Assembly (NCBI GenBank): GCA_050306135.1
Contig: JBNLGQ010000029.1
Span: 128,585 to 192,584 of the forward strand
Direction: 5' to 3'
DNA length: 64,000 nucleotides
Source: Gammaproteobacteria bacterium
GTDB lineage: Bacteria > Pseudomonadota > Gammaproteobacteria > GCA-001735895
Shown here piece after piece: positions 39,422 through 57,406 of the stretch. The position numbers and the translations under genes are program-made. Numbering within the stretch: position 1 is the stretch's first letter; every line of letters starts with the position of its first letter. Below the pieces are notes generated by a model. That model searched no databases, was not told the origin of the DNA, and worked only from the letters and a program-made list of their open reading frames with translations.

Positions 39422-39449
39422 TGTAAGTTTTCCTTTTCTGTAACGACTA
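39422..39449 (+). promoter_or_regulatory. Candidate ECF promoter TGTAAG-N16-CGACTA upstream of the sigma gene
   Basis: Both hexamers recur exactly at 40447-40475. Confidence 0.7.
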
Positions 39450-39588
39450 ATTTAGAAATCAATATTTCGTATATAGGTTTATAGGAATAGTAATGCTGTT
39501 ATCTGGGTGATGAAATAAAGACTCTGGCTAAAAATCCCAGACATCACTATAGTTTCATGAAGATAAAACATGGATCAGAGCGTATTTA

Positions 39589-40218
39589 ATGAGTGATGAC
39601 CGACTAACTCCTGAAAGAAAGAAAATTGATGAAGGGGGAGTAAAACTTACCGACGAGGCTTTCATAGCAGAGTTACGTAAAAAAATGCTCAAATTTGCAA
39701 TGCTTCAGTTATCTGATCCACATCTGGCTGAAGATGCTGTTCAGGAAGCTCTGATTGCTGCGTTAAAGAATGCAGATTCTTTTCATCGCCGATCTGCTCT
39801 AAAGACATGGGTGTTTGCTATATTGAAAAATAAGATTGCTGATGTTTTAAGACAGAAAACACGCCGATCAGAAGTGAGTCAGCTGTCTACAGATGTTGAA
39901 GGTGATGACAGTCTGGATAAGCTTTTTAATGCCAGAGGTTTCTGGCAGGCAGATGAGAAGCCTGTAACCTGGTCTGAACCGATGGAGTCTGTACAAAACG
40001 GTCACTTCTGGCTGGTATTCGAAGCCTGTCTTGAGCATTTGCCAGAAAGCCAGGCTCGGCTGTTTATGATGAGGGAATTTATTCAGTTGGACACGGCTGA
40101 GATATGCGAAACCCTGAAAATATCTACCAGTAACCTGCATGTCATGTTGTATCGCTCCAGATTACGCTTAAGAGAATGCCTGGAGAATAACTGGTTCAAA
40201 GATGGAGAAAAGTCATGA
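39589..40218 (+). CDS. ECF sigma-70 factor (TIGR02943-like)
   Basis: AEDAVQEA, LKTWVFAILKNKI and NLHVMLYRSRLRLRECLE motifs. Confidence 0.92.
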   Translation: MSDDRLTPERKKIDEGGVKLTDEAFIAELRKKMLKFAMLQLSDPHLAEDAVQEALIAALKNADSFHRRSALKTWVFAILKNKIADVLRQKTRRSEVSQLSTDVEGDDSLDKLFNARGFWQADEKPVTWSEPMESVQNGHFWLVFEACLEHLPESQARLFMMREFIQLDTAEICETLKISTSNLHVMLYRSRLRLRECLENNWFKDGEKS

Positions 40219-40427
40219 TGAATTGTAAAAAAGCCACCCGGTTATTGTCTGAAGCCCAGGAGCATGATTTATCACTTACCGACCGTGCAGCGCTGAAAAT
40301 TCACGTGATGATGTGCTCTGGCTGCACTAACTTTTCAAAACAGATAAATTTATTGCGCAGTTTTTCTCAAAGCTATACACAGGGTGAAGAAGCAACCTTT
40401 CCTTCTGAAAAACAGGAAAAGGATTAA
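40215..40427 (+). CDS. Zinc-finger (zf-HC2/ZAS) anti-sigma factor
   Basis: N-terminal Cys plus HVMMCSGC (HxxxCxxC); ATGA overlap with the sigma stop. Confidence 0.88.
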   Translation: MMNCKKATRLLSEAQEHDLSLTDRAALKIHVMMCSGCTNFSKQINLLRSFSQSYTQGEEATFPSEKQEKD

Positions 40428-40446
40428 AAAATAATTTTACGTCAGG

Positions 40447-40475
40447 TGTAAGAATTTCAGTAGTCGCTACGACTA
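40447..40475 (+). promoter_or_regulatory. Candidate ECF promoter TGTAAG-N17-CGACTA upstream of arsS
   Basis: Same hexamers as 39422-39449; ends 54 nt before ATG 40530. Confidence 0.7.
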
Positions 40476-40529
40476 TGGATTTAAGCTGCATCCATAAGGG
40501 TGCCTGTCTTTTTTATCTGGAATTTGAAC

Positions 40530-41483
40530 ATGCTTGATACCTTACCCTATCTGGAAACAACAGAGTTTCCGCTGATTACCAGACGCAGTCTGGAAACACT
40601 GCAGGTTAACCTTGGATACCGCTGTAATCAGACCTGCCTACATTGTCACGTGAATGCCGGGCCTCATAGAACAGAAATGATGGATCAACACACATTACAG
40701 CAGATTTTGCCTGTGTTGCTTAAACATAATATAGCAACGCTTGATCTAACTGGAGGGGCTCCTGAGATGCATGATGGATTTCGTGAACTGGTTAGCTCGG
40801 TCACAAATGCAGGTGTTCATGTGATTGATCGCTGTAACCTGACGATCCTGTTCGAACCCGGACAGGAGGGGTTAGCTGAATTCCTTGCTGACGAAGGCGT
40901 TGAAATTGTTGCTTCTTTGCCCTGTTACACATTGGAAAACGTAGATCAGCAGCGTGGCAAAGGTGTTTTTGATAAGAGTATCGCGGGTCTACAGAAGCTC
41001 AACGCTCTCGGTTATGGCAAACCGGGAAGCGGTTTAAAGCTCAATCTGGTGTACAACCCTCAGGGTGCTCAGCTACCGCCTGATCAACAGCAGCTGGAAT
41101 GCGACTATAAGCGCGAACTAAAGGACCATTTTGCAATTGAATTTAATGAACTGTTTGTACTTGCCAATATGCCTGTTAAACGATTTGGTTCCACCTTACT
41201 CTCTAAAAATGGCCTTGACGATTACATAGCATTATTAAAAGCGAATTTCTCCGAACAAAACCTGGAGCAGGTTATGTGCCGCTCTATGCTAAGCGTAGAT
41301 TGGCAGGGGTATCTGTATGACTGTGATTTTAATCAACAACTGGGTATGAATCTTGATGGTTCAAAAAAGCCTGAATTAAAAGATTTACTGAATACGAAGC
41401 TGGAAGGGAAAACCATTCGTGTTGCGGATCACTGCTTTGGTTGTACTGCGGGTCAGGGTAGTAGCTGTGGCGGTGCGCTCTAA
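40530..41483 (+). CDS. arsS: ArsS-family radical SAM protein (DUF3641 C-terminus)
   Basis: CNQTCLHC motif, LDLTGGAPE, SLPCY, YDCDFNQ and the C-terminal HCFGCTAGQGSSCGGAL; ATG 40530. Confidence 0.88.
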   Translation: MLDTLPYLETTEFPLITRRSLETLQVNLGYRCNQTCLHCHVNAGPHRTEMMDQHTLQQILPVLLKHNIATLDLTGGAPEMHDGFRELVSSVTNAGVHVIDRCNLTILFEPGQEGLAEFLADEGVEIVASLPCYTLENVDQQRGKGVFDKSIAGLQKLNALGYGKPGSGLKLNLVYNPQGAQLPPDQQQLECDYKRELKDHFAIEFNELFVLANMPVKRFGSTLLSKNGLDDYIALLKANFSEQNLEQVMCRSMLSVDWQGYLYDCDFNQQLGMNLDGSKKPELKDLLNTKLEGKTIRVADHCFGCTAGQGSSCGGAL

Positions 41484-42315
41484 AAACTGGCAGCAAAAGC
41501 TGCCTGTCAAGGTTATTGTGTTATTAGCGGCGCTGACTATACAGTCAGTAGCTGCGGATAATTTTGATCATTCGATATGGGATAAACTGTTAAAGCAACA
41601 TGTGGAAAAAAAGGGCCTTTCCACGGTCGTGGATTATCGAGGCATGTTGTCTGATCATGCCCAGCTGAAACAGTATCTAAAGTCTATATCAACACTACTT
41701 CAACAGGAATTCGAGGAAATGGATTCCTCCTCCCAGCTGGCTTTTTTGATCAATGCTTATAATGCTTGGACGATAGAACTGGTTCTAAGCAACTACCCTG
41801 AACTAAATTCCATTAAAGATCTAGGCAATTTTATAGTTTCCCCCTGGAGTAGAGACTTTATTCCTCTGTTCGGAGAAAAATACTCACTGAATGATATCGA
41901 ACACAGGTTTATTCGTGGATCTGGACGATATCAAGATCCACGCATACATTTTGCGATTAATTGTGCCAGTATCAGTTGTCCGGCATTACGAGCGGAAGCT
42001 TATTGGGGGGATTTTCTAGATACTCAGTTTGAACAGCAGACGCGACTTTTCCTGTCTAATCAGAATCACAATCGCATTCAAAGTGATGTGTTACAGCTGT
42101 CATCTATTTTTAAATGGTATCGCTCTGACTTTGAGAAGGAGTGGATGGGCTGCAACTCATTAAATGATTTTTTGCTGCGATATGCTGATGAGCTTAAGTT
42201 AACAGCAGCGCATATTAAGCGCTTAAAAGATAATAAACAGATTATTGAATTTCTTGACTATGACTGGGGGCTCAATTCAAAAGCTGCTAAATCATCTCAA
42301 ACGGCGAGAAAATAG
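41473..42315 (+). CDS. DUF547 domain secreted protein
   Basis: LAFLINAYNAWT, DPRIHFAINCASISCP and FLDYDWGLN motifs; GTG 41473 gives a signal peptide. Confidence 0.88.
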   Translation: MRSKNWQQKLPVKVIVLLAALTIQSVAADNFDHSIWDKLLKQHVEKKGLSTVVDYRGMLSDHAQLKQYLKSISTLLQQEFEEMDSSSQLAFLINAYNAWTIELVLSNYPELNSIKDLGNFIVSPWSRDFIPLFGEKYSLNDIEHRFIRGSGRYQDPRIHFAINCASISCPALRAEAYWGDFLDTQFEQQTRLFLSNQNHNRIQSDVLQLSSIFKWYRSDFEKEWMGCNSLNDFLLRYADELKLTAAHIKRLKDNKQIIEFLDYDWGLNSKAAKSSQTARK

Positions 42316-42329
42316 AGATAATAATTACT

Positions 42330-43379
42330 ATGAAACCTTTTTATTATATGCAGGTGATAGTAATCATGTTCTTTATGATTCAATCGTCTCTGGTTGAGGC
42401 TAGCGACGAAATAAAGGAGCCTGTTACTGTTTCTATCTATATTGATAATGATTTATTCACGGGTAGTAACAGAGATGAAAATTACACCGGTGGTTTCGCG
42501 TTAACCTATTCTGGGGCAAAGGCTGCTAATCATCCTTTTTCTATTGATAAGGCTTTAAGATGGGTAAATGATTTAACAGGAGTTTCATCTGTTGCTCGTA
42601 ATGGCGATCGAATCTGGCACTCCTGTGAAGCGGGCCTGGCCGCATTTACACCCATCGATCTAGATAGTCGGCAGCCAATTACCAATGACCGACCCTATGC
42701 TGGTCTAGTTTATTTATCCAATGCGCAACAAACAGTTAGCGCAGAAACTCGCAGCGCCTTGATTAGTACGCTGACCCTGGGTTTTCTGGGTCTTCATTTA
42801 ACAGCCGAAACTCAAAACTCTATCCATGAAATGATTGGCTCAAGTAAGGCTGAAGGCTGGGATAATCAAATATCAGAAGGCGGTGAGGCTACCTTTAAAT
42901 ATTCATTAACCTGGCAGAAATATCCCGATTTAAAAAATAATAATCTACAGGCGACTACATCCTTAGGGGTTAGTATCGGTTACCTGACCGAAGCCGTCGC
43001 CGGTGCTAGTTTTCGCTTCGGAAGAATACATACTCCATGGTGGAGTTTTAATGTGCATAATAGTAACTACGGTGAAAAATCGAACGTCACTCTGCCGACA
43101 TCAAATTTTAAAGATGAGTTTTATGGGGTAGTCGGTGCGAATATCAAACTACGTATTTTTAACGCGTTGTTACAAGGTCAATTTCGGGATAGCAAGGTGA
43201 CCTACTCATCCAGTGATCTGGAGCCTGTGGTACTTGAAGCCTGGATAGGTGTGGGAAGTGAGTTTAAATCAGGCCTGCGACTCAGTTATCTTTTGCGCTA
43301 CCAAACCAGCGAGTTTAAAACCGGTCTGTCTGATCGAGGGTTTAGCTATGGTGAGATTGTAGCCAGCTATAAGTTTTAA
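42330..43379 (+). CDS. LpxR/DUF2219-family outer-membrane beta-barrel protein
   Basis: Signal peptide; DNDLF...D.NYTGG, DRPYAG, GWDNQI motifs; terminal Phe. Confidence 0.8.
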   Translation: MKPFYYMQVIVIMFFMIQSSLVEASDEIKEPVTVSIYIDNDLFTGSNRDENYTGGFALTYSGAKAANHPFSIDKALRWVNDLTGVSSVARNGDRIWHSCEAGLAAFTPIDLDSRQPITNDRPYAGLVYLSNAQQTVSAETRSALISTLTLGFLGLHLTAETQNSIHEMIGSSKAEGWDNQISEGGEATFKYSLTWQKYPDLKNNNLQATTSLGVSIGYLTEAVAGASFRFGRIHTPWWSFNVHNSNYGEKSNVTLPTSNFKDEFYGVVGANIKLRIFNALLQGQFRDSKVTYSSSDLEPVVLEAWIGVGSEFKSGLRLSYLLRYQTSEFKTGLSDRGFSYGEIVASYKF

Positions 43380-43463
43380 TGACAACTGTGATGATCAGAA
43401 ATGCCCTGTAAAAAAACAATTATTTTTATGAATTATTTAAGCCTGTATGGAGTCCTATAGAAC

Positions 43464-44852
43464 ATGATTACTGAACTCGTTATCATTACCGTTACAATCG
43501 CACTCTTTTCAATAATCCTGGCACCTCGTGTTAAATCTGAAAAGTCCTTTTTTCATGGATATACATCAACTGGCGTTTCCCCCGGTCTGCTCACGCTGGT
43601 ATTTTCTCAGGTAACGACCTGGATATTTGCCCGTTCATTAATGAATGCCGCGATTCTGGGTTTCTATTATGGGGTTTGGGGCACCCTGGCTTATGCAGCT
43701 TATTATCTGTCCTTTATTACCGGGGCATCGATTATAGACAGCCTCCGCTTCCGTCACGGTTATAAAAATATCCAGAGCTTTCTGTTTGATCGTTTCGGCA
43801 GTATCGGCACTGGCTGTTATAACTTTGTGATCGGGTTAAGGCTGGTCAGCGAGGTGTTTGCCAATCTGCTGGTGATAGGTATTCTTTTTGGTGCGGCTGG
43901 TAGCAATCTATATACACTGAGTATCATCGGTTTTGCAGCTATTACACTGATCTATTCTATGACGGGAGGGCTACATGCCTCGCTGCGTACCGACGTCATG
44001 CAAATGATCATTTTTATCATCGTGTTACTGGCGTTACTGGTGATTGTCATGGCTGGTGATAGCTTTTCGTGGGATATACTGGGATTTAAGGTATTTAAAA
44101 TCAGTGACCCTGGCCCTGTTTTATTATTGGTGGCATTGTTACAGGTCTGGAGTTATCCGATGCATGACCCGGTAATGATGGATAGAGGTCTGCTGGTCGA
44201 TCGTAATACGACCCGACGCAGCTTTTATCATGCCGCATGGATTAGCATTAGTTGTATTCTGGGTTTTGGCTTATTGGGGATTTTTGCGGGAGCAAATGCA
44301 ATGGATGGTGAGTCGATGAATGCCGCTTTAAGTCGATTAACAGGAAGTGTAACTATGCTTTTATTCAGCACGACATTGGTTATATCAGCGATGTCTACAC
44401 TTGATAGTACACTTTCCAGTTCAGCAAAATTAATAGTTATAGATATGCAACTGCTGGGTTACAAGGTGAGTAATGGGCGCCTTGTGATGGCATTATTTAT
44501 GCTGCTGGGTTTATTTCTGGTATTTGTCGGCAATAAAGACCTGTTTAGTGCTGTTGCAGTAAGCGGTACTGCTTCTATGTATCTGGCTCCGGTTATCTTT
44601 TTCTCACTATGGGGTGGACGAAATGATATTCCTGTATGGAGTTATGCAGCCAGCTTTACACTGGCGGTGAGTGCTGCGGTGTTATATTTTCTTGAGTCAT
44701 CTGGCTATACTATGCTGCTGGGTGATGCGCATAAATATACCAAGTTACTATGGATTTCTTTGGCTGTGCTTATCGCTGGATGTGGTTTTTTCTGGGTGGG
44801 CGGTAAAACTTCTGCGCAGAGTCAGCATCTTACACAAAGTTCTGCAGTTTAA
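43464..44852 (+). CDS. Sodium:solute symporter family protein
   Basis: Many TMs; SQVTTWIFARSLMNAAILG, GGLHASLRTD and SAMSTLDS motifs. Confidence 0.85.
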   Translation: MITELVIITVTIALFSIILAPRVKSEKSFFHGYTSTGVSPGLLTLVFSQVTTWIFARSLMNAAILGFYYGVWGTLAYAAYYLSFITGASIIDSLRFRHGYKNIQSFLFDRFGSIGTGCYNFVIGLRLVSEVFANLLVIGILFGAAGSNLYTLSIIGFAAITLIYSMTGGLHASLRTDVMQMIIFIIVLLALLVIVMAGDSFSWDILGFKVFKISDPGPVLLLVALLQVWSYPMHDPVMMDRGLLVDRNTTRRSFYHAAWISISCILGFGLLGIFAGANAMDGESMNAALSRLTGSVTMLLFSTTLVISAMSTLDSTLSSSAKLIVIDMQLLGYKVSNGRLVMALFMLLGLFLVFVGNKDLFSAVAVSGTASMYLAPVIFFSLWGGRNDIPVWSYAASFTLAVSAAVLYFLESSGYTMLLGDAHKYTKLLWISLAVLIAGCGFFWVGGKTSAQSQHLTQSSAV

Positions 44853-44888
44853 ACCATACTATTTTTTTATACTTAGAGACTCAGCTTT

Positions 44889-46553
44889 ATGCCCTCGACG
44901 TTCCTTCTGGTTTCAGTGTTCATATTAGTCTTTATCGGCAGTGTGCAGCTGATATGGCCTCCTGTTCTATGGGCACTGGTTATCTGTCTCCCGATGATTA
45001 TTATTGGGTTTTATGACATGTTTCAGAGTGATCATGCCATCAGACGTAACTTCCCCCTGTTTGGACGTGGCCGATGGCTGATGGAGGGACTGCGTCCATA
45101 TATCAGACAATATTTACTTGAGTCAGATACCAATGGGACTCCGATCAACAGGATGTTTCGCAATATTATTTATCAGCGTGCAAAGGGTGCTCGGGAAACA
45201 GTGCCTTTTGGTACCCGAGTTGATACCTATCGTACGGGTTATGAATGGATGGGGCATTCCCTGTCAGCCATCGATGTGAATAGTTTTGATGCCGATATGC
45301 GTGTCACTATTGGTGGTCCAGACTGTCGCCAGCCATACTCCTCCAGTATATTGAATATTTCAGCCATGAGCTTTGGTGCTCTCAGTCAAAATGCCATACT
45401 GGCATTGAATCAGGGGGCTCAACTGGGCGGGTTTTCGCATAATACCGGCGAAGGTGGTATCAGCCCTCATCACCTCAAACACGGCGGAGATCTGGTGTGG
45501 CAAATAGGCACGGGCTATTTTGGTTGTCGTGATAAACAGGGGAATTTTTCAGCACAGGAATTCAGCCAGAAGGCCAATCTGGATGTGGTGCGCATGATAG
45601 AAATCAAACTATCGCAGGGTGCAAAGCCCGGGCATGGTGGCATTCTACCTGCGGATAAAAATACCGCAGAGATTGCTGCCATACGTGGCGTAGAGGTCGG
45701 AACTCAGGTGAATTCTCCTCATGTACACAGTGCTTTTGATTCCCCCCTTGGTCTGCTGAGATTTATCGATCAGTTACGCACTCTATCGAATGGGAAGCCG
45801 GTCGGTTTCAAGCTTTGTATCGGGCGTCAGAGTGAGTTTGTCGCTATCTGTAAAGCCATGCTGGAAACAAATATTTACCCTGACTTTATAACTGTTGATG
45901 GTGGTGAAGGTGGCACGGGTGCCGCCCCATTAGAGTATACCAACTCTGTCGGTATGCCGTTACGTGAAGCCGTTGCGTTTGTTGATGATTGCCTCACTGG
46001 TTTTGGTATACGTCAGCATATTCGCATTATAGCTTCAGGTAAGATTCTTTCCGGTTTTCATCTGGTTAAAACGCTGGCGCTGGGTGCTGATATCTGTAAC
46101 AGCGCCAGAGGCATGATGCTGGCTTTGGGCTGCGTGCATTCATTAACCTGTAACAGCAATGAATGCCCAACGGGGGTGGCTACACAAAACCCTAAATTAT
46201 TTCGTGGACTGGTAGTGAGTGATAAAAGTCAACGAGTGGCACAGTTTCATAAAAAGACCGTGCACGCTACGGCTGATATTATTTCTTCGGCAGGCCTACG
46301 TCACAGCAGCGAGCTGAATAGAACCCACATATTTCGACGTACCAGCCAGAACTGTATTCAGCGATATGATCAAATTTTTCCATATATTGGCTCGGGAAGT
46401 TTGTTGAGTGAAGATATACCTGAAGCCTACAGCTTGTATCTGGAAGAGGCTGATTCCAAAAGTTTCCAGCCCAAACAGAGTTTAACTTATATGAAAAATG
46501 AGAACAGCAAGATAGATGTTAACAGCGCTCCAGTGACGCCTGATTTATCTTAA
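44889..46553 (+). CDS. FMN-binding glutamate synthase family protein (stand-alone, N-terminal TMs)
   Basis: SAMSFGAL, HNTGEGG, EIKLSQGAKPGHGG, DGGEGGTGAAP and C-x5-C-x4-CPTGVATQ motifs. Confidence 0.9.
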   Translation: MPSTFLLVSVFILVFIGSVQLIWPPVLWALVICLPMIIIGFYDMFQSDHAIRRNFPLFGRGRWLMEGLRPYIRQYLLESDTNGTPINRMFRNIIYQRAKGARETVPFGTRVDTYRTGYEWMGHSLSAIDVNSFDADMRVTIGGPDCRQPYSSSILNISAMSFGALSQNAILALNQGAQLGGFSHNTGEGGISPHHLKHGGDLVWQIGTGYFGCRDKQGNFSAQEFSQKANLDVVRMIEIKLSQGAKPGHGGILPADKNTAEIAAIRGVEVGTQVNSPHVHSAFDSPLGLLRFIDQLRTLSNGKPVGFKLCIGRQSEFVAICKAMLETNIYPDFITVDGGEGGTGAAPLEYTNSVGMPLREAVAFVDDCLTGFGIRQHIRIIASGKILSGFHLVKTLALGADICNSARGMMLALGCVHSLTCNSNECPTGVATQNPKLFRGLVVSDKSQRVAQFHKKTVHATADIISSAGLRHSSELNRTHIFRRTSQNCIQRYDQIFPYIGSGSLLSEDIPEAYSLYLEEADSKSFQPKQSLTYMKNENSKIDVNSAPVTPDLS

Positions 46554-46559
46554 CAGCCC

Positions 46560-47282
46560 CTAACTCAAGTTGAAGGATAAAGGGATTTCAAACTGCCACT
46601 GCAGACGATTTATTTTTTCAGGAAAGGGGAGTTTCCCTGAAACGGCCTGTATCGCCTTGATGACGGCTTTATCCAGAATCTTATGCCCTGTGGAATCGAT
46701 AACGCGAATCTGTTTGACGGTGCCATCACTCAATACAAGAAAACTTACAATTGCCCTGCCTTCTATATTACGGCGTTGTGCGCGCCGAGGGTAATCCTTG
46801 CTGGCATCGATTAACTTGCTCAGGGTTAGTCGATACTCATCTTCCAGCCTGGTAATTAGTCCGGGATCATGCATCATCTTCTCGGGTTCTGCTTCCAATG
46901 CAGCTACCGGCTGTGGAGGCGGTGCTGCCTGCACAATCTCTGGTTGCGGCTCGACCTCTGGTTTCGGTGGTTCTATTTTTTTCTCTACTACAGGCTTTCT
47001 CATCGGCCTGGGTTTAGGCTTTACGATGGGTTTGGTTTTCTTTTTTACTACGGGTTTCGGCTTGACCGGTTTGGGAGGAGGAGTTACCGGTTTTGGTGGC
47101 TCAGGAATAATGGTCTTAACTGGTTCGGGAACTGTTTTGAACATCGCCAGTTTTAATGGGGTAGTTGTTTGTTTATTGCTGGCAGAAGTGAATTTTCCTG
47201 AAAAATAGGGGATAGCGACCGCTGCATGTATGAGTGCAGAAAAAAAGATGGCTATCAACTCGAAATGGAAATTTCTGGGCAT
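46560..47282 (-). CDS. tonB: TonB energy transducer
   Basis: N-terminal TM, Pro/Lys-rich linker, YPRRAQRRNIEG C-terminal domain. Confidence 0.9.
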   Translation of the reverse strand: MPRNFHFELIAIFFSALIHAAVAIPYFSGKFTSASNKQTTTPLKLAMFKTVPEPVKTIIPEPPKPVTPPPKPVKPKPVVKKKTKPIVKPKPRPMRKPVVEKKIEPPKPEVEPQPEIVQAAPPPQPVAALEAEPEKMMHDPGLITRLEDEYRLTLSKLIDASKDYPRRAQRRNIEGRAIVSFLVLSDGTVKQIRVIDSTGHKILDKAVIKAIQAVSGKLPFPEKINRLQWQFEIPLSFNLS

Positions 47283-47284
47283 TG

Positions 47285-47659
47285 TTATTGCTGTTTGGTA
47301 ATAATCGATAGCTTTTCGAGTTGATTGCCTTTGAGTAAATCAATCACCTGGATAAAGTATTCAAAAGCTACCTTTTTATCTACGCGCAATACGATAGGCG
47401 TATCGTTCGATAAATCCTTAAGCCGGTCGCCTAATTCCTGCTGGGTGATTTTCTCTTCGTCGTAATAAAACTGATTTTGATCATCAATCGCAATTTCTCG
47501 TGTCTGTTCAGCTTTTAGCGGTTGACTGCTACTGGCTTCGGGTATGTTGATATCGATCTTGCCCTGAGCGATGAAGGTTGCTGTCATCAATACGATAGCC
47601 AGCAATACCAGCATGATGTCGATAAATGGAATAACATTGATCTGATCAAAGCGTTTCAT
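47285..47659 (-). CDS. exbD: ExbD
   Basis: INVIPFIDIMLVLL motif; ATG 47659 overlaps the exbB stop. Confidence 0.92.
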   Translation of the reverse strand: MKRFDQINVIPFIDIMLVLLAIVLMTATFIAQGKIDINIPEASSSQPLKAEQTREIAIDDQNQFYYDEEKITQQELGDRLKDLSNDTPIVLRVDKKVAFEYFIQVIDLLKGNQLEKLSIITKQQ

Positions 47660-48084
47660 TGATCCTGTGCCTGTTTCCATTGTGAAGTCAGTACATCAAC
47701 CTTACGCAACAGCGTGTTGTAGAACAGTATGGAGGGAATGGCGACTACAAGCCCCGCTGCAGTCGCTTTAAGTGCCAGAGCCAGTCCAAGCATGATGGCA
47801 GAGGGGTCTATGTTTCCTCCGCCCTTGCCTATATCCCAGAAAGTAATCAATATGCCAAATACCGTTCCCAATAAGCCGATATAGGGTGCGTTGGAACCAA
47901 TGGTTGAAATAGCGGTGAGTCTATGGGTCAGGGAAACCTGAAGTTGCTCAGGATGGGTGTAAGCATCCACCTTGAAGCGGGCGTAAAAGATAAAGCGTTC
48001 AATGACGAACCAGATCATCAGAAAACTCATCAGACCGAGAATGCCGAAAACCATAAAATCCAGATATTGCTTTAAAAATTCCAT
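47656..48084 (-). CDS. exbB: ExbB (short form)
   Basis: TIGSNAPYIGLLGTVFGI and ALKATAAGLVVAIP motifs; 142 aa. Confidence 0.92.
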   Translation of the reverse strand: MEFLKQYLDFMVFGILGLMSFLMIWFVIERFIFYARFKVDAYTHPEQLQVSLTHRLTAISTIGSNAPYIGLLGTVFGILITFWDIGKGGGNIDPSAIMLGLALALKATAAGLVVAIPSILFYNTLLRKVDVLTSQWKQAQDQ

Positions 48085-48086
48085 AA

Positions 48087-48731
48087 TTAAAATGCCATAG
48101 CAATGCGATAACTACCGATAGCAACCAGTACACTGCTACCGAACCAGACCAATCCCTGTTTCAGCCAGGGGCTGCGACTACGTAGTTCCTGCCCCAACTT
48201 GCCGAGTAAAGGCAGGATAATAAAAAGCGGGGTAATCGCTGCACCAAGGCCAAATACAAATCCGTAGGACATTCCCAGGGTGAAGCTTCCGGCTGCAGCA
48301 CAGGCAGCTAACAGGGCGGCAAGTGGCGCACAGGGAATAAAGCTAAGAGAAAAACCCATCATGAAAGGATGCATATTGTGTCGCTTACTGATCGCGCAAC
48401 CACGGTGCTGCTTACCCATGTTGTAAATTAACCAGATACCTGCCACTACACTGCTGACTCCGATTAATACATTGCCAATACCGCTACGCAGGTAATGCAG
48501 CAGAAATTCACCAGTAATACCTGCGAATGCACCTAGTGTTGCATAGGCTGTCACTTTTCCAGCAGCAAATAATCCGGCATCAATCATGCTGCCTTTCATA
48601 CCCAGATTGCGGCTCATTACCCAGCTGCCCATAAAGGGCAGGCAGGATGCTGTGCAGGCGGTAAAGCCTACGGTGATGCCGAGAATCCACACCGAAAATA
48701 GTCCGACCTGTTGCAGTACGATATTGTCCAT
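48087..48731 (-). CDS. CcdA/DsbD_2 (TauE/UreH-like) membrane protein
   Basis: Six hydrophobic segments with the Cys motifs ACTASCLP and FIPCAPL. Confidence 0.7.
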   Translation of the reverse strand: MDNIVLQQVGLFSVWILGITVGFTACTASCLPFMGSWVMSRNLGMKGSMIDAGLFAAGKVTAYATLGAFAGITGEFLLHYLRSGIGNVLIGVSSVVAGIWLIYNMGKQHRGCAISKRHNMHPFMMGFSLSFIPCAPLAALLAACAAAGSFTLGMSYGFVFGLGAAITPLFIILPLLGKLGQELRSRSPWLKQGLVWFGSSVLVAIGSYRIAMAF

Positions 48732-49786
48732 CAGACTGGCTCCACGGTAACGGGGCGAGGTTTAGCTTTTTTTGTAGGCTTTATACCTTCAGGCTTTTCC
48801 TGCTTGATACGTTTCTTGTAGTACTCTCTGTTAGAGCTAAATAATGCTATCGGGCCAAACTTGACTTGAATGACACCGTCATCAGGACAGAATTCAGCAC
48901 AGCGTCCGCATAAAGTGCAGTCATCGTGAAAGGCTTTGCTGCCTGATTGTTTCCAGATTTCCTGAATATCCATCGGGCAGGCCTTTGTACAGACGCCACA
49001 TTTTTCGCATTTCTCATGTTCTTTCTTTACCAGTCGTGTGGGCGATAGTTTCTGGAACAGAGCATTGAATGCGAGTAAGGGACAGATTCTACAAAATGGC
49101 TGACGCATGGTCATCGATAACACAACAATCGTGCCGAATAACAATGCACGTATAGATGAAAAAATGATATCAGCGATACCTGCGGTGTTAATGGTTAACT
49201 GTTCAAAGTTACCACTAGCTAATGTGGTAAGAACACGAGATGGACAGACCTGACAAAAGGCATCACCGGCAGCGTGCGGTGCTACGCCAAGTCCAGCGAC
49301 CAGGGGCAGGATAAAAACCAGTATGGCCAGCATTAACCATTTTATTGGACGTACATATCGCAGCTGATTTTGCGCAAGGCTGTGGTTTTTCTGTAGCCCA
49401 AAGAAGTGTGACATCTTGTACATCATTTCCTGAAAGGTACCCAGCGGGCAGATCCAGCCGCAGAACATCTTATTCAGAAAAACAAAAAATACATAAAATG
49501 ACAGAAAGGTGAACAGTAGAGGAATGACGACCTTGTAACTGAATTGCTGTATCTGTACTAATGCTTCTCCAACACGATGGTGCAATTGATGCTGGGTAGG
49601 TATCAGTACGCAATAACCTCCATTTAACTGATCGTAGGCACAGGAAAGAGCAGGCAGAGATCCTGAGATTTTTTCTGCAGAATAGTGACCTACAAGAAGG
49701 CCGCCATATACCAGAAAAAGAAAGGATAGAATTTGTACGACAAATCGTACACGGCCAAGAGTAGGTGCGCTTATGGATGAGCTCAT
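48731..49786 (-). CDS. Membrane 4Fe-4S protein (NapH/CcoG/NosR-like)
   Basis: FCGWICPLG, FCRICP, CEKCGVCTKACP and CTLCGRCAEFCP motifs. Confidence 0.85.
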   Translation of the reverse strand: MSSSISAPTLGRVRFVVQILSFLFLVYGGLLVGHYSAEKISGSLPALSCAYDQLNGGYCVLIPTQHQLHHRVGEALVQIQQFSYKVVIPLLFTFLSFYVFFVFLNKMFCGWICPLGTFQEMMYKMSHFFGLQKNHSLAQNQLRYVRPIKWLMLAILVFILPLVAGLGVAPHAAGDAFCQVCPSRVLTTLASGNFEQLTINTAGIADIIFSSIRALLFGTIVVLSMTMRQPFCRICPLLAFNALFQKLSPTRLVKKEHEKCEKCGVCTKACPMDIQEIWKQSGSKAFHDDCTLCGRCAEFCPDDGVIQVKFGPIALFSSNREYYKKRIKQEKPEGIKPTKKAKPRPVTVEPV

Positions 49787-50598
49787 GCTGACCTCCTTTT
49801 GAACAAAAAGATGCCGGTTATCAGGCTACCGCTAAAAGCCAGACCAATGGCCGGTAATACGGATTTATTGGTGAAAGCATCTTCGCCATATTTGTAATTA
49901 AAGGCTGACGTTTTATTATCATGCTCAACACTGAGGGCAAATTGGGCGGATTTTCTACCATGGCTTGCATGGCCCATGTCATGGCCTTTATGCTTTTCTG
50001 CGAAGGCTGCAAAATCATCTGGAAAACGGACAGAGACTATGCCATTAGCATCGCTGGTCATAGTGATGGTTGTGTCGTTACTGGTCTCTAGAATAACGGT
50101 AGCATCGGCCAGAGGTTTTCCCTGTGATAGCACGATAAAATCCCAGTTTTCATTGGCTCTAAATCGTTGGTGTTCGCGCGGTAGATTTACGGGCTTGATT
50201 TCCAGTGGCAGTTTGCTTTGCTTTAGCATCTGTCTTGGCGCCGGACCGGGGCTAGAAAAATAATGAACTGTACTTGCAAAGTGTAATCCTTCGCTATCAG
50301 CAGCAGTTAACCAGTGGTAATTACCCTGGTTTTTACCGCCGATTTTCATGCTAAAGCTGCCATCACCGGTTGCATTTAATTCATTCGCAATAGACTCGCC
50401 TTCTGATGCAGGAAAATCCTGCATCAAAACATTGCTCATATTGTGAGGGCGAAAAGCAGACTGAGCACGACGATCAGCACCCTTTATTCTCTCCGGGATA
50501 AGTATCGGAGCTGAGGTCCAGTTGACACTCGCCTGTAGCGGGATAGCCAGTGATGCAAGTACAGCCCAGACAGGAGCCAAATAAATCAGTCTTTTCAT
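49783..50598 (-). CDS. Periplasmic DUF4198-like protein with His-rich loop and C-terminal membrane anchor
   Basis: Signal peptide; LEIKP..F.V...GKPLADA.V..T.SDANG.V pattern; HKGHDMGHASH; terminal TM followed by KRR. Confidence 0.6.
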   Translation of the reverse strand: MKRLIYLAPVWAVLASLAIPLQASVNWTSAPILIPERIKGADRRAQSAFRPHNMSNVLMQDFPASEGESIANELNATGDGSFSMKIGGKNQGNYHWLTAADSEGLHFASTVHYFSSPGPAPRQMLKQSKLPLEIKPVNLPREHQRFRANENWDFIVLSQGKPLADATVILETSNDTTITMTSDANGIVSVRFPDDFAAFAEKHKGHDMGHASHGRKSAQFALSVEHDNKTSAFNYKYGEDAFTNKSVLPAIGLAFSGSLITGIFLFKRRSA

Positions 50599-52754
50599 GA
50601 TTTAGCTCCAAAGCTATAGGTGTAATTGAACAGGATGGATCGTGGTGCACCGGCCTGGTAGGATTTGTCACCTGAGGTGTCTTTGCTCACTTCTAATGCA
50701 TAGCGTTCGTCGGTCAGATTGCTCACGGTTAAATCGAACTTGTGCTGTTTCATGGCATAGCGCAGGTTAAAATCAGCAATCATTTTATTGTCCGTCCATT
50801 TTTCACTGTTGGCATTATCCATATAGTATTCACCATCTTTGCGTAGCTTAATCTGTGAAGAAAACCCTTCTGTGAATTGATATTCAACGAACATATTGGT
50901 TTGTTGACGGGGTATTAACGGTAGATAGTTTCCGCTACGATCCACATTGGAAACATTACGTCCAACTCTAACTTCTTCCTGGAAGTCATCATATTTATAG
51001 CTGGTGAAGTTTAACCCGGCGCCAAAAGTTAATTGTGCAGTAGCTGCATACTGACCTGAAAATTCCAGTCCCTGTTTACTGGTCTGACCGGCATTAACAT
51101 ATTGGCTTTCTCCATCAGGCTGACGAATTTGAATAACTTCATCCTTTCCAGTAATGTCATAAATGGAGGTATCGAAAGACCATCTTCCACTGCGGCCCTT
51201 TAAACCGATCTCGATATTTGTATTGCTGGATTTGTTTAGATCAGGGTTGCTATTGAGTTCGCTGTCTGCAGGTATTTGATCGGCTGTGGCAAGTGAAATA
51301 AAGGTATTAATCTCTTTAGTTAGTTCATAACTTACACCTACACTGGCTGAGCCAAGGGTTAGGTCGTGGGTGTTATGGGTCTCGCCAGCGCCGGTATCAT
51401 AATTACCTGTGCTGTAGTTGTAGGCGATGATCTCATTTTCATCAATAGTGAGTTTGACGTCATCCACGCGAGCTGTTAAATCCATACTGACTCGGTCAGT
51501 CAGGTTCAGGTGTTCTGAAGCGAAAAGACCCAGCAGTGTTCCTTTGGTGCTGCTTATTTGTGCCAGCTCGCCTTTATCATCTGAAAGTGTAGAAACGATA
51601 CGACCTGAAGGGATGGTTTGAACATCGGCATAGGTATACTTTTCAGCATCCTTGGTAGTATTAACCCGATAAGCAATACCAAAAACCGTATTGGCATCTC
51701 GTCCGCCTATCTGGTGTTCATTCTGAACGGCAATCTCTGCGCCCAGCATGTTGGGTGGATTACCGGAGTTGTCATTGATGAATCCGGTAACAGGGTGGTA
51801 ATGGTGATACTGGCTGTAATACAGCTTGGGTTCCAGCATATAATCACCCATCTCGATTTCTGCCTTGGTGTTAAAGAAAACATTCTCGGAATAGCGACCG
51901 GTATGTTTGAAGATGCTATCTACGTCATTCTGTTCACCCGTACGCTTGTATTCTTCCCACATGGCTTCGTCCATTCCGCCTGATAATTCCATATCAATTT
52001 TTGCAAAACCGAGCTCGGTTTCCAGCACATTATCTTCACCAAACTCAAGACCATGTTTAATGCTCAGGTGATCACTGGACTGTTCATTACGTTTGCGCCA
52101 GCTGTTCTTTAATTCACGATGACTAAAGGTGACTGACATAGCCTGGTTTTCGTTGATGTCTCCCCCCGTTCTTAAGTGCAGGTCACTACCATCATCATCG
52201 TTGATACCAATCTTTATGCGGCCTTTATCCTGATCGAAAACAGATTTTGTGATGATATGAATGGTGCCGCCTGCAGAGCCCGAAGCATACATATTGCCGG
52301 GACCACGGGTGACTTCTAAACGTTCAATGTCCTGACCATCGATAGTGTCCAGGCGGGTAAAGCTATCGGGCTCTGTAAGAGGGATGCCATCGCGTAGTAC
52401 CATAATTTCTCGTATGCCATATCTTGCTTTCAGTCCTGCACCACGAATAATCAGCTTGGCACTACTTAAACCATTTTTTGAGTAGGTAACAACACCGGGA
52501 ATATCCTGTAATGCATCACTGATGGAGTTCATCTTCAGCTGGTCGAGTTTTTCTTCACCCATACTGGAAATAGCCGAAGGCACCGACTTGCTTTCACGCT
52601 CGGATCTTGTTGCGGTAATGGTTACTTCATCAAGTACATCTCCTCCAGCGGTTTCAGCATAACTGGGCAAAGGAATGAGTGAAGACAAAAAAAGAAAATA
52701 TGCAGAGGTGAGGTAATGCCCTGATTTCCGATTGATACAGAATGGATCTTTCAT
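50595..52754 (-). CDS. TonB-dependent receptor
   Basis: TonB box DEVTITATR, plug motifs IRGAG and IERLEVTRGP...GSAGGTI, C-terminal NLTDERY...GAPRS. Confidence 0.93.
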   Translation of the reverse strand: MKDPFCINRKSGHYLTSAYFLFLSSLIPLPSYAETAGGDVLDEVTITATRSERESKSVPSAISSMGEEKLDQLKMNSISDALQDIPGVVTYSKNGLSSAKLIIRGAGLKARYGIREIMVLRDGIPLTEPDSFTRLDTIDGQDIERLEVTRGPGNMYASGSAGGTIHIITKSVFDQDKGRIKIGINDDDGSDLHLRTGGDINENQAMSVTFSHRELKNSWRKRNEQSSDHLSIKHGLEFGEDNVLETELGFAKIDMELSGGMDEAMWEEYKRTGEQNDVDSIFKHTGRYSENVFFNTKAEIEMGDYMLEPKLYYSQYHHYHPVTGFINDNSGNPPNMLGAEIAVQNEHQIGGRDANTVFGIAYRVNTTKDAEKYTYADVQTIPSGRIVSTLSDDKGELAQISSTKGTLLGLFASEHLNLTDRVSMDLTARVDDVKLTIDENEIIAYNYSTGNYDTGAGETHNTHDLTLGSASVGVSYELTKEINTFISLATADQIPADSELNSNPDLNKSSNTNIEIGLKGRSGRWSFDTSIYDITGKDEVIQIRQPDGESQYVNAGQTSKQGLEFSGQYAATAQLTFGAGLNFTSYKYDDFQEEVRVGRNVSNVDRSGNYLPLIPRQQTNMFVEYQFTEGFSSQIKLRKDGEYYMDNANSEKWTDNKMIADFNLRYAMKQHKFDLTVSNLTDERYALEVSKDTSGDKSYQAGAPRSILFNYTYSFGAKS

Positions 52755-52827
52755 TTGGTACAGCCCTATAGTTTGTAATGATTATTAAATGATGGGCGAA
52801 TAGTAAATTGGAAGAATAATTCTGAAA

Positions 52828-52857
52828 GAGGCAAATTGTCGCGCGACAATATGTCAC
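52828..52857. promoter_or_regulatory. Two abutting RegA/RegR-type boxes
   Basis: GAGGCAAATTGTCGC + GCGACAATATGTCAC, together forming the perfect palindrome ATTGTCGCGCGACAAT at 52835-52850. Confidence 0.5.
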
Positions 52858-53116
52858 AGGGGAATAACTGTATTACTGATACGAAAAACACGTAATGATG
52901 TAGAGGGGGCTAGCGTATTTTCAGAGATCGGTTAACTGATCAGGGTGAGGTAGGTAATAAATAGAAATTGCATGTTCAACTCTATTTAGAGTTCTCAGAT
53001 AGGGGATCTGTACCCCCGACTTTAGGCGATGGATGCTTGGGAGGGGGCGTGTGATATTCTAAATAAATGGAAAATACTAATACCTGGGGCTACAGGTTCA
53101 GGCTTCAAAAAAATAG

Positions 53117-54025
53117 TTATTTTACCCCCTCTCCATATATCAGGGGCTTGCGCATCAGATACCAGGCGTCTGAGTAGGGAACGGTTCCATTATCTCGAAT
53201 GATTTGCTTGCCTTTTTTTGAGGATGCGAATTTTACGAATTCTTTAACCTTGTTATTTGATTTTGCACCGGTAACCAGATAAAGAGGGCGATAAAAAACA
53301 TAATTACCCGACTTAACATTTTCATAGGTAGGCACATAATTATCGATACCGATGATTTTCACATCACGTTTTCTGGCACTACTGACTCCTGTAATGGCGA
53401 TGGCATCAGGGTCTACTTCAACCGCTTTTTCGATGGGACCGGATGATTTCTTGATATATTCTTTCCTGGTCACAAAGTCAAAATCGCCAGCCTTAAAAAT
53501 ATACTGTCGAATGGCATACCCCACACCGGAAATTTTACCCTTTCGAATATAAAGATGGATGGGTTTATCTAAACCGCCAAGCTGCTTCCAGTTGGTGATT
53601 TCTCCACTATAAACCTTACTAATCTCTTCTGAAGTAATATTACTTACTGGATTATCTTTGTGCAGAATAACAGCTAATGCATCCCAGGCTACTGGATGAA
53701 GTGTTACATAGCTTTCAATACTATCAGACAGGGGCAGGGTCATTCTACAGGTACCGCCCATCATGACTAATCCCTTAGCGGTATCTCTTATACCTCTAGT
53801 TGCACCGCCACCTTCTATGTGAATTTTAATCCCGGTCTCGTTTTCAAAACCCTGAGCAAGTTCTTTCATAAAAGACTTTTGAGTGATGCCGCAACCAGCC
53901 CATGTAAGCACGGAGTCGTCGATTTCAGTGAGGGCTAGTACCTGTCTGGGCTGCAATAGCAAGATTGCAGTAATCAGAGCGATTGATTTCAAAATGACGA
54001 AGTGGGCAGGTTTTTTAGTAGCCAT
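53117..54025 (-). CDS. PstS-like periplasmic binding protein (orphan)
   Basis: Signal peptide; GGGATRGI, VAWDALAVILHKDNPV, ITNWKQLGG and RPLYLV motifs. Confidence 0.8.
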   Translation of the reverse strand: MATKKPAHFVILKSIALITAILLLQPRQVLALTEIDDSVLTWAGCGITQKSFMKELAQGFENETGIKIHIEGGGATRGIRDTAKGLVMMGGTCRMTLPLSDSIESYVTLHPVAWDALAVILHKDNPVSNITSEEISKVYSGEITNWKQLGGLDKPIHLYIRKGKISGVGYAIRQYIFKAGDFDFVTRKEYIKKSSGPIEKAVEVDPDAIAITGVSSARKRDVKIIGIDNYVPTYENVKSGNYVFYRPLYLVTGAKSNNKVKEFVKFASSKKGKQIIRDNGTVPYSDAWYLMRKPLIYGEGVK

Positions 54026-54243
54026 AATACTTAGCTTAATTTTTTCTCAGGGAATAAATTCCCAAAGGTATAGCGGTTACCGTTATCATTTAATTAATTT
54101 ATTCATTAAAGGTCAAATTTCCAGACGAGTGGTTAAGTACACATAATGCTGCATACTGTTTAACACCTTCTGTGCATGAAAGCATTTTGTGTGCAATATA
54201 GTGCGTTCCGATCAGGGTCCCCCTCGGAAACTGTTAACTTGTG

Positions 54244-54732
54244 TCAGCAGTTTCTGAGGATTTCCCTGGTCAATTCTTCAAGTTGATTCTGATTGAAAAC
54301 CTTGATGCCATGCCTCTCAAGTAAAGCAGCGGTAACCCCCTTACCGGGTATTTTTATGCCTTTAAATTCTCCATTATGGATGCTATTGCTGCCGCAGGAG
54401 GGACTGGATTCGGTTAACAGGGCAATACGAATGTCGTGCTGTTTACAACATTGAAGTGCTAACTCTGCACCGCGTATAAAGTCTTCTGTGACATCAATGT
54501 CATCGCTATTGATTACCCGGGAGTTGCCAGCTAATACCTCATCACCATTACCCCTGATAATCTCAGCAGGAGCCCTTGGTGTTGCTAGCCCGCCCGAAAC
54601 TTCGGGACAAAAAGGAATTATCTCAACTCGGGCCTGAATATCCCTGAATAGCTGTGAGCAGATCGCAAGATCACTACCGTTGTATCTCACTTTCTGCCCC
54701 ATCAGACAGGAGCTGACCATGATTTTTATCAT
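54244..54732 (-). CDS. DUF523 family protein (TudS/2-thiouracil desulfidase-like)
   Basis: SSCLMG..VRY.G, CPEV.GGL.TPR and SPSCG motifs. Confidence 0.88.
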   Translation of the reverse strand: MIKIMVSSCLMGQKVRYNGSDLAICSQLFRDIQARVEIIPFCPEVSGGLATPRAPAEIIRGNGDEVLAGNSRVINSDDIDVTEDFIRGAELALQCCKQHDIRIALLTESSPSCGSNSIHNGEFKGIKIPGKGVTAALLERHGIKVFNQNQLEELTREILRNC

Positions 54733-54769
54733 GCATCCGACCTCATTAATTGAAGGCGTATTTTGACGC

Positions 54770-55366: not shown

Positions 55367-55559
55367 ACTAAAGTGGACTCGTCTGTTTTCAAATTTGATT
55401 TATATTAGGGGATAAAATACTGAATGAAAACTACGATAAAAAATAAGCAAATAGATGAATAAATAGATAAAAGGGGAACTTTGCTATCGCCGCCAGGCCA
55501 TTAAACCATCCTTTATATCGAATCAAATAAAGGTATACTGCTCGTTTTTTTCATAGCCC

Positions 55560-57188: not shown

Positions 57189-57196
57189 ATGAGTTA

Positions 57197-57406
57197 ACCA
57201 CGAAGGTCACGAAGAACACGAAGATTTTTTTGGTGGGGGATGGGTTGTTGATTGGTGGCTTGCTGGCGCTGCGGTGGGTAGTTGGGGGCTGGAAAGGCTT
57301 TTTAACCACGGAGCACACAGAGAACACAGAGAAGAAAATCTTTTTTAATCTTCGTGCCTTTCGTGGTTTACATCACAAACCTCTGCGTACTCTGTGCCTC
57401 CGTGGT
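57197..57406. repeat. Two interleaved family-A palindromes (A-B-A'-B')
   Basis: A accacgaaggtcacgaag (57197) pairs with A' 57347-57367; B accacggagcacacagagaacacagag (57305) pairs with B' 57381-57406. Confidence 0.8.

Follow-up and report, generated by a model that had tools for sequence, protein, structure and literature searches.

A 64,000-nucleotide stretch of DNA from a gammaproteobacterium (contig JBNLGQ010000029.1), referred to below as the window, carries a gene cluster headed by arsS, which encodes a radical SAM (S-adenosylmethionine) 5'-deoxyadenosyl transferase of the ArsS family. To our knowledge, no enzyme other than ArsS is known to initiate the formation of arsenosugars and arsenolipids. 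A first-pass annotation of this DNA had described a variant operon of five genes and had left out a gene for an extracytoplasmic function (ECF) sigma factor, a gene for an anti-sigma factor, and two promoter copies that lie directly upstream. With these included, the features of the region, all on the forward strand, are as follows.

39422-39449, forward strand: predicted promoter of the sigma/anti-sigma operon, TGTAAG-N15-ACGACTA, 140 nt 5' of the sigma ATG
39589-40218, forward strand: ECF sigma factor gene, 209 aa, matching NF009196/PRK12544, TIGR02943, Sigma70_r2, and Sigma70_r4_2
40215-40427, forward strand: ZAS (zf-HC2) anti-sigma factor gene, 70 aa, overlapping the sigma stop codon; weak match to PF13490
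40447-40475, forward strand: predicted promoter of the arsS operon, TGTAAG-N16-ACGACTA, 55 nt 5' of the arsS ATG
40488-40503, forward strand: 6-bp hairpin just 3' of the predicted arsS transcription start, flagged as terminator-like
40530-41483, forward strand: arsS, 317 aa
41467-42315 (alternative starts at 41419 and 41437), forward strand: DUF547 gene, with a 17-nt overlap with the 3' end of arsS
42330-43379, forward strand: LpxR-like gene, encoding an LpxR-fold outer-membrane barrel; 14-nt gap from the DUF547 gene
43464-44852, forward strand: SSS-like gene, encoding a predicted divergent carrier of the SLC5/SSS superfamily, 462 aa; 84-nt gap
44889-46553, forward strand: GltB-like gene, encoding a predicted membrane-anchored protein with a flavin mononucleotide (FMN)/3Fe-4S domain, 554 aa; 36-nt gap

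The open reading frames confirmed the co-orientation and spacing that had been claimed for the five genes from arsS to the GltB-like gene, and the public gene calls on the source contig (metagenome-assembled genome [MAG] GCA_050305115.1) concur. The family assignments of all five genes were borne out by profile matches. No terminator-like site was found in any of the three intergenic gaps of the five-gene operon, and no RNA family within the window reached the Rfam gathering threshold. Judged from the sequence, the five genes form a real operon, the expression of which is predicted to be controlled by a dedicated, stress-sensing sigma/anti-sigma pair. This module and its promoters are the best evidence that the five genes are one regulated unit.

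The sigma factor consists of sigma regions 2 and 4 only and scored above the family cut-offs (NF009196, 307 bits compared to a cut-off of 287; TIGR02943, 251 bits compared to a cut-off of 162). The start and stop codons of the sigma and anti-sigma genes overlap. The anti-sigma protein has no hydrophobic segment, and its potential ligand set, C4...H30-x3-C34-x2-C37, was kept with fixed spacing in 15 of 15 aligned homologues; it is predicted to be a small soluble ZAS protein. The motif TGTAAG-N15/16-ACGACTA, which has ECF architecture, had exactly two matches in the 64-kb window, compared to 0.00 expected from shuffled sequences. The presence of the same ECF-type motif before both the sigma gene and arsS is the pattern predicted for an autoregulatory promoter. 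The motif resembles the experimentally defined site of Caulobacter sigmaF, GTAACC-N16-CGAA (PMC3511200).

The promoters could also be examined in a sister lineage, designated L084, which has the order sigma-anti-sigma-arsS-SSS-GltB without the DUF547 and LpxR-like genes. Identity between the two lineages is 90% for ArsS, 92% for the SSS protein, 87% for the GltB-like protein, 77% for the sigma factor, and 68% for the anti-sigma factor. In an alignment of the window with L084 the intergenic DNA had diverged except for islands 5' of the sigma gene and 5' of arsS, and both of these islands contain TGTAAG-N15/16-ACGACTA. The hairpin at 40488-40503 was considered as a terminator between the anti-sigma gene and arsS and was rejected. 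In L084 its stem is kept, with a T-to-C change that makes a G.U pair G-C, and the T-run is lost. Given its position 3' of the arsS promoter and the loss of the T-run in L084, the hairpin is probably a 5' stem-loop of the arsS mRNA. A relaxed match to the motif (TGTAAC...CACGACA) at 44348-44375, inside the SSS gene and 514 nt 5' of the GltB-like gene, is not conserved in L084 and is probably a chance occurrence.

The comparison with L084 also delimits a cassette of ∼1.9 kb on the forward strand (41484-43405, the end being approximate) that contains the DUF547 and LpxR-like genes and is present in the window and not in L084. In the junction alignment this cassette fits precisely between the stop codon of arsS and a conserved stretch of ∼55 nt 5' of the SSS start. 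On the reverse strand of the window, a cluster encoding TonB, ExbD, ExbB, DsbD_2, a NapH-like Fer4 membrane protein, DUF4198, and a TonB-dependent receptor (46560-52754) runs toward the GltB-like gene and stops 6 nt short of it; L084 also has this cluster after its GltB-like gene. Two other loci, L085 and L086, encode a GltB-like protein identical to that of L084 and have sigma-anti-sigma-arsS in inverted orientation beyond the TonB/ExbBD/DsbD_2/Fer4/DUF4198 cluster. This arrangement is either an inversion polymorphism or an assembly artifact.

In order to follow the promoter beyond the window, a relaxed form of the motif was counted in 2.3 Mb of non-redundant fetched loci. There were 18 matches, compared to a mean of 3.45 (maximum, 7) in shuffled sequences, and most of them sit just 5' of sigma, arsS, arsM, MNIO/bufferin, AhpC, or DUF547-DedA/FAD-oxidoreductase-GltB units (FAD, flavin adenine dinucleotide). 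Such matches precede the sigma gene in L005 and L172; arsS in L008, L018, L087, L171, and L172; arsM in L008 (8224-8251); MNIO/bufferin (BufB-like) operons in L015 (9791-9818) and L099 (11499-11525); an AhpC-TSA operon in L088 (2347-2372); and, in Methylohalobius crimeensis (L090), an operon with the order DUF547-DUF3179-DedA/FAD-oxidoreductase-GltB-like-TPP (thiamine pyrophosphate). A still looser motif was found within 200 nt 5' of arsS in 21 of 85 loci, compared to ∼3.3 per control window of equal size, and the loci concerned include some that have no sigma gene within 10 kb. The motif ties copper-metallophore, peroxiredoxin, and arsenic genes into one putative regulon, and from its distribution we infer a conserved ECF regulon that includes arsS. 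Literature searches found no description of this ArsS cluster or of this ECF regulon. In the bufferin literature, genes for ECF sigma factors are described next to buf/gig operons, but there the anti-sigma factor is the membrane protein NrsF/RsqA.

The arsS product scored 465.2 bits against TIGR04167 (equivalog cut-off, 300) and also matched Radical_SAM and DUF3641 (PF12345; 2.8e-55). The cysteines of its CX3CX2C motif (C32, C36, and C39) are invariant, and four C-terminal cysteines (C250, C265, C302, and C305) are conserved. ArsS adenosylates dimethylarsenite [DMAs(III)] to DDMAA (5'-deoxy-5'-dimethylarsinoyladenosine) in a redox-neutral reaction, and DMAs(III) is its only demonstrated substrate (PMC13598754).

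In order to determine which genes usually accompany arsS, the 80 closest ArsS loci were collected, with one genome per GTDB species and 58 to 71% identity to the window ArsS. Almost all were from beta- or gammaproteobacteria. Neighbors within 10 kb were counted in the 53 loci that had at least 5 kb on both sides. The most frequent were the glycosyltransferases TIGR04283 (45 of 53 loci; 85%) and TIGR04282 (44 loci; 83%), followed by a DedA/VTT-fused FAD disulfide oxidoreductase (28 loci; 53%), the TIGR03169 oxidoreductase (19 loci), an unassigned protein of 358 aa (15 loci), DUF3047 (13 loci), DUF547 (12 loci; 23%), MTAP (10 loci), an ECF sigma homologue that was mostly upstream of arsS (9 loci), ArsM (8 loci; 15%), MNIO (7 loci), and the SSS subfamily found in the window (6 loci; 11%). 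Neither the LpxR-like nor the GltB-like gene was found in any of the 53. Where glycosyltransferases were present, they were usually part of the arsS cluster, either directly after arsS or one to two genes downstream.

These counts change the weight of what is missing from the window. The first-pass annotation had reported that ArsM and the TIGR04282/04283 glycosyltransferases are absent locally, and none was seen when translations of the larger open reading frames (at least 150 aa window-wide and at least 100 aa in 52800-64000) were read by eye, with Pfam run on selected reading frames rather than as a complete family scan. However, the missing ArsM, which had been regarded as a distinctive trait, is the norm, because ArsM is absent locally in 45 of 53 ArsS loci. 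A cluster without glycosyltransferases is indeed unusual (8 to 9 of the 53). Therefore, it is the absence of glycosyltransferases (present in 44 to 45 loci), not that of ArsM (present in 8), that sets this cluster apart.

In a neighbor-joining tree without support values, the window ArsS nested within the canonical glycosyltransferase-bearing clade, the window and L084 proteins adjoined glycosyltransferase-bearing loci, and SSS-type loci were scattered. The ArsS proteins of three loci discussed below (L171, L172, and L175) are 69 to 71% identical to that of the window, which is as close as any GTDB hit. The placement in the tree suggests repeated, recent remodeling, with the window carrying a trimmed cluster rather than an old separate lineage or pathway. 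Fusion proteins of the ArsS family were also found (P0021, P0055, P0058, P0068, P0092, P0121, and P0018), with an ArsM-type methyltransferase in both domain orders and, in one case, with a Flavin_Reduct domain.

The SSS-like protein fell below curated cut-offs (PF00474, 22.2 bits compared to 22.8; TIGR00813, 38.7 compared to 184), and its sequence alone had no match in the PDB. Only a profile of the carrier subfamily reached solved carriers, matching CHT1, SGLT1/2, and DUR3 over the first ∼200 residues (E values of 1e-9 to 5e-5, with CHT1 at 1e-9). Because this profile matches solved SLC5 carriers and the protein has at least nine hydrophobic segments, the predicted product is a polytopic, divergent member of the SLC5/SSS superfamily. 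The SSS gene lies directly 3' of arsS in L084, L034, L053, L058, L065, and L083. In four of these loci, from Pseudomonas, Halopseudomonas, and Propionivibrio MAGs (L053, L058, L065, and L083), the glycosyltransferase-less order ArsS-SSS-(358 aa)-DedA/FAD-oxidoreductase recurs; in L034 the SSS gene is in a full cluster with ArsM and glycosyltransferases. Across the 80 ArsS loci, 1 had both SSS and glycosyltransferases, 5 had SSS only, 58 had glycosyltransferases only, and 16 had neither (Fisher P = 0.004). This near-exclusion fits a transport-based alternative to glycosylation. No LpxR-like or GltB-like gene was found near any of the 80 ArsS genes; both recur with ArsS-set genes elsewhere.

The DUF547 protein (PF04784; 2.4e-25) has a hydrophobic, signal-like segment at residues 12 to 30 and is probably periplasmic. 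Neither the single sequence nor a profile had a significant solved relative. An invariant H-x-A-x2-C-A-S-x2-C-P (H161-P172), and hence a C-x4-C pair, is common to the DUF547 proteins encoded in ArsS clusters. The LpxR-like protein (PF09982; 1.7e-47; 162 bits compared to a cut-off of 26) likewise has a signal-like N terminus. Its AlphaFold2 model had a pLDDT of 81, and the best PDB match found with Foldseek was Salmonella LpxR (3fid; E value, 5e-20; target-normalized TM-score, 0.81). Residues D39/N40/D41 and H166 are invariant among 37 homologues, and in a sequence alignment the conserved His falls opposite "...NRAHRIIG" of 3fid. We take the catalytic residues of Salmonella LpxR to be an N-terminal Asn/Asp pair and a His.

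With no LpxR-like gene near any of the 80 ArsS genes and none in L084, this gene was considered as a passenger. That view was overturned by the contexts of its five closest homologues (55 to 59% identity), three of which lie in ArsS clusters. The order is sigma-anti-sigma-ArsS-DedA/FAD-oxidoreductase-LpxR-DUF547, followed by two glycosyltransferases and, further on, ArsM, in L172. In L175, the largest version of the cluster seen, sigma-anti-sigma is followed at a distance by ArsS-DedA/FAD-oxidoreductase-LpxR-DUF547, two glycosyltransferases, DUF3047, MauE, one unnamed gene, AhpC, ArsM, LMWPc, PBP_like_2, and an ABC permease; with this gene set, arsenate might be taken up, reduced, methylated, and adenosylated in one complete route. 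L171 has GltB-like and Sulf_transp genes and then ArsS-DedA/FAD-oxidoreductase-LpxR-porin-metallophosphoesterase-SSS. The homologues in L173 and L174 are without ArsS context; in L174 a merR-merT-merP-like-merA-like operon (10049-12600) lies ∼1.7 kb from the LpxR-like homologue. The clusters in L172 and L175 hold ArsM and both glycosyltransferases plus the DedA-FAD oxidoreductase and DUF547, which does not agree with the LpxR-like gene being a substitute for ArsM or the glycosyltransferases.

The GltB-like protein (PF01645; 3.2e-81; 274 bits) can be aligned with the FMN domain of GltS. The alignment takes in the C-x5-C-x4-C motif that binds the 3Fe-4S cluster, and C415, C421, and C426 are invariant in the family. 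It has an N-terminal hydrophobic anchor segment. The score against the GltB equivalog NF008730 was 137 bits compared to a cut-off of 1047, with only profile positions 863 to 1174 matched. Lacking the amidotransferase, central, and GXGXG domains, the protein is, to judge from its domain content, not a glutamate synthase. It belongs to an uncharacterized group of proteins annotated as "FMN-binding glutamate synthase family protein," with ∼70% identity across many taxa. In related loci the GltB-like gene follows arsS-SSS (L084), lies ∼5 kb from a pair formed by ArsS and LMWPc (L087), stands beside a sigma/ZAS pair (L088), adjoins the DedA-FAD oxidoreductase (L090 and L116), or is near arsM-sigma-anti-sigma (L099). 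A sigma-type promoter was found 5' of the gene or its apparent operon in four of the five closest contexts (L084, L088, L089, and L090). The possibility that the GltB-like protein replaces the DedA-FAD oxidoreductase was rejected, as genes for both stand side by side in L090 and L116 and share a cluster in L171.

We consider it probable that the genes in 39422-46553 are regulated as a single unit and that this unit is a reduced selection, of the transporter type, from a mosaic ArsS cluster found widely among beta- and gammaproteobacteria. As read from the gene neighborhoods, the mosaic commonly includes TIGR04283, TIGR04282, the DedA-FAD disulfide oxidoreductase, DUF547, DUF3047, the TIGR03169 oxidoreductase, MTAP, and ArsM. 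Because each of the five window genes recurs with ArsS-set genes in other loci, all five appear to be recurrent members, the SSS, LpxR-like, and GltB-like genes being the rarer ones.

A model of how the unit might work can be proposed. Thiol-reactive stress, most likely from arsenite, methylarsenite, or another soft metal(loid), would perturb the zinc site that Cys and His residues form in the anti-sigma factor, and the sigma factor thus freed would transcribe its own gene and the five-gene operon. ArsS would move the 5'-deoxyadenosyl group from SAM onto a trivalent methylated arsenical. The SSS carrier would move a small organoarsenical across the inner membrane in place of the glycosyltransferase route, and import fits SLC5 best. 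The periplasmic DUF547 protein, with its C-x4-C pair, and the LpxR-fold barrel would act in the envelope, and the GltB-like protein would supply a membrane-bound redox step. In favor of arsenic are the ArsS-ArsM fusions and the presence in L175 of ArsM, an LMWPc-type phosphatase/reductase, and a PstS-like ABC system in one cluster.

Several points weigh against this reading. The LpxR-like and GltB-like genes recur with arsS only rarely, neither being present in any of the 80 closest ArsS loci, and 80 more distant GltB-like loci (52 to 70% identity) mostly have unrelated neighbors. In L085 and L086 arsS is split from SSS-GltB, so that cotranscription would not be obligatory, a caution that applies to all readings. 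The tree that places the window ArsS is a neighbor-joining tree without support values. Caulobacter sigmaF answers to Cr and Cd, via a different, membrane-bound anti-sigma factor. The direction of transport and the substrate are features that we infer, as are the roles of the DUF547 protein, the LpxR-like barrel, and the GltB-like protein.

The alternative that survives best, which we regard as possible, is that a standard pathway has been split. ArsM, the glycosyltransferases, and the DedA-FAD oxidoreductase would then be encoded elsewhere in the genome, possibly behind the same promoter, and the products would be of the ordinary arsenosugar type. The dispersal of the regulon in other taxa, where the motif precedes separate arsS, arsM, bufferin, and DUF547-DedA/FAD-oxidoreductase-GltB units, is consistent with such a split, as are the arsS promoter motifs of loci that lack a sigma gene within this 10-kb range and the full gene set of the nearest ArsS relatives. 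However, neither a partner gene nor a third promoter copy was seen in the 64-kb window, glycosyltransferases usually share the arsS cluster where they are present, and the exclusion between SSS and glycosyltransferases argues for real loss.

The proposal made in the first-pass annotation was a self-contained uptake-and-modify pathway. A methylated arsenic, selenium, or sulfur compound would be taken up via the LpxR-like barrel, the DUF547 protein, and the SSS carrier, ArsS would adenosylate it, the GltB-like protein would carry out a redox step, and no arsenosugar would be formed. We consider this rather unlikely. The exclusion between SSS and glycosyltransferases fits the proposal, and so do the glycosyltransferase-less ArsS-SSS clusters (L053, L058, L065, and L083), the window in which no ArsM or glycosyltransferase was seen, and the match of the carrier profile to SLC5, as SLC5-type carriers are typically importers. 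In contrast, the presence of the LpxR-like gene (L172 and L175) and the SSS gene (L034) in full clusters points to accessories of the same pathway, and the window ArsS nests in the canonical clade. Furthermore, LpxR is an enzyme fold and not a known solute channel, and the local absence of ArsM is shared with most ArsS loci anyway.

A more far-reaching version of the regulated-unit reading is speculative, and as a whole we think it improbable. It would make the sigma/anti-sigma pair an undescribed ECF sigma/ZAS sensor of thiol-reactive metal(loid) stress, with a TGTAAG-N16-CGACT regulon of ArsS/ArsM, bufferins, the DedA-FAD oxidoreductase, and GltB-like proteins. In the window this regulon would be pared down to an ArsM-independent salvage route, in which an environmental methylated arsenical is imported by a carrier of a new SLC5 subfamily and adenosylated, and the product is then placed or processed at the outer membrane in envelope steps by the DUF547 protein and the LpxR-fold enzyme.

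It is also conceivable, although quite doubtful, that the substrate is not an arsenical. This ArsS-family enzyme would then serve a general thiol/metal stress response in which the nucleophile it adenosylates is a compound of selenium or sulfur or something else again. The NCBIfam family name contains "(seleno)protein," TIGR03169, a family found N-terminally fused to SelD, is encoded in 19 of 53 clusters, the same promoter precedes bufferin (copper) and AhpC operons, and L171 has a nearby YeeE/YedE-type Sulf_transp gene. However, the ArsS-ArsM fusions, the ArsM, LMWPc, and PstS-like genes in the closest full clusters, the equivalog-level TIGR04167 score, and DMAs(III) as the only demonstrated substrate (PMC13598754) all speak for arsenic.

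The least probable explanation is incidental juxtaposition, with arsS (perhaps together with SSS) alone functional and the DUF547, LpxR-like, and GltB-like genes as passengers; the absence of LpxR-like and GltB-like genes from the 80 GTDB species, the lack of the DUF547-LpxR cassette in L084, and the generally variable neighborhoods of GltB-like genes are in its favor, but each of the three genes recurs with ArsS-set genes in independent lineages, a sigma-type promoter precedes GltB-like operons elsewhere, and the gaps in the window are tight and free of terminators.

Other genes in the window lie outside the regulated unit. A PBP_like_2 (PstS-like) binding protein is encoded on the reverse strand at 53117-54025; it was considered as a member of the unit and rejected, with only ∼26% identity to the PBP_like_2 proteins of ArsS clusters (L087, L172, and L175). 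A second ECF sigma factor gene (14842-15390) and a gene for a 237-aa partner, the C terminus of which is weakly DsrE/DsrF-like, are located on the reverse strand at 14125-15390. Reading by eye also identified an aldehyde:ferredoxin-oxidoreductase-like gene at 435-2252 and a complete rnfABCDGE-like cluster at 22882-28014, which suggest that the source organism may be anaerobic or microaerobic.

Of the new results, the sigma/anti-sigma module is the most useful, together with the conserved promoter and the regulon to which it points. In any genome, the complete regulon could be mapped by means of this promoter, and the regulatory model is concrete. Hundreds of proteobacterial species have ArsS in clusters whose other genes are without an assigned role, and a minimal cluster, with five genes compared to ten or more, is convenient for learning what the product of ArsS is when glycosyltransferases are absent. 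The cluster also offers a first functional handle on DUF547, on the membrane "FMN-binding glutamate synthase family" proteins, and on a new SLC5 subfamily. If a transporter has in fact been exchanged for the glycosyltransferases, bacteria may process environmental methylated arsenicals, which would bear on arsenic cycling.

The components of the unit can be compared with better-known systems. The anti-sigma factor, like the redox-sensing ZAS protein RsrA of the SigR-RsrA pair, is small and soluble with C...H-x3-C-x2-C, in which 26 residues separate the first Cys from the His, and we take the spacing of C11/H37/C41/C44 in RsrA to be the same; the sigma factor is of a different ECF lineage, and the window protein is a candidate for redox or metalloid sensitivity. 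The Caulobacter sigmaF-NrsF and Cupriavidus RpoQ-RsqA (ECF16) systems, which are metal-stress regulons next to bufferin (gig) operons, have a promoter architecture similar to that of the window unit, and a link to MNIO/bufferin operons and metal stress is common to these systems and the window unit. However, the window anti-sigma factor is a soluble ZAS protein of 70 aa, whereas NrsF is a six-helix membrane protein. The LpxR-like protein shares the 12-stranded barrel fold of the Salmonella lipid A 3'-O-deacylase LpxR (3fid) and has a conserved N-terminal D-N-D motif and a conserved His that aligns to the active-site region of LpxR, but identity is 18%, the sequence match is not significant (E = 0.1), and the gene is inside an ArsS operon. 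The alignment of the GltB-like protein with the FMN/3Fe-4S domain of GltB covers the three cluster cysteines; the window protein adds an N-terminal membrane anchor and is without the other GltB domains.

The cyanobacterial ArsM/ArsS system, in which ArsM supplies DMAs(III) and Synechocystis ArsS converts it to DDMAA, uses the same enzyme family, with CX3CX2C and a Cys-rich DUF3641 C terminus, and the ArsS-ArsM fusions confirm that the two enzymes are linked within this family. The window differs from it in being proteobacterial, in having no ArsM seen within 64 kb, in its predicted control by an ECF sigma factor, and in its other partner genes. Closer to the window are the proteobacterial ArsS-TIGR04283-TIGR04282 clusters (the "arsenosugar biosynthesis glycosyltransferases" of NCBIfam), which have an orthologous ArsS and share DUF547, the sigma/anti-sigma pair, and the promoter; the window lacks their glycosyltransferases and DedA-FAD oxidoreductase and has SSS, LpxR-like, and GltB-like genes instead. 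The ArsS-SSS clusters in L053, L058, L065, and L083 resemble the window in that arsS is followed by the same SSS subfamily (34 to 37% identity) and there are no glycosyltransferases. These clusters have the 358-aa protein and the DedA-FAD oxidoreductase and no LpxR-like or GltB-like gene, whereas the opposite is true of the window. Because the ArsS proteins of these clusters are on other branches of the tree, the ArsS-SSS arrangement appears to have arisen more than once. The window operon is thus a reduced, transporter-type, ECF-controlled variant, of moderate interest, of an ArsS cluster that is known but poorly understood.

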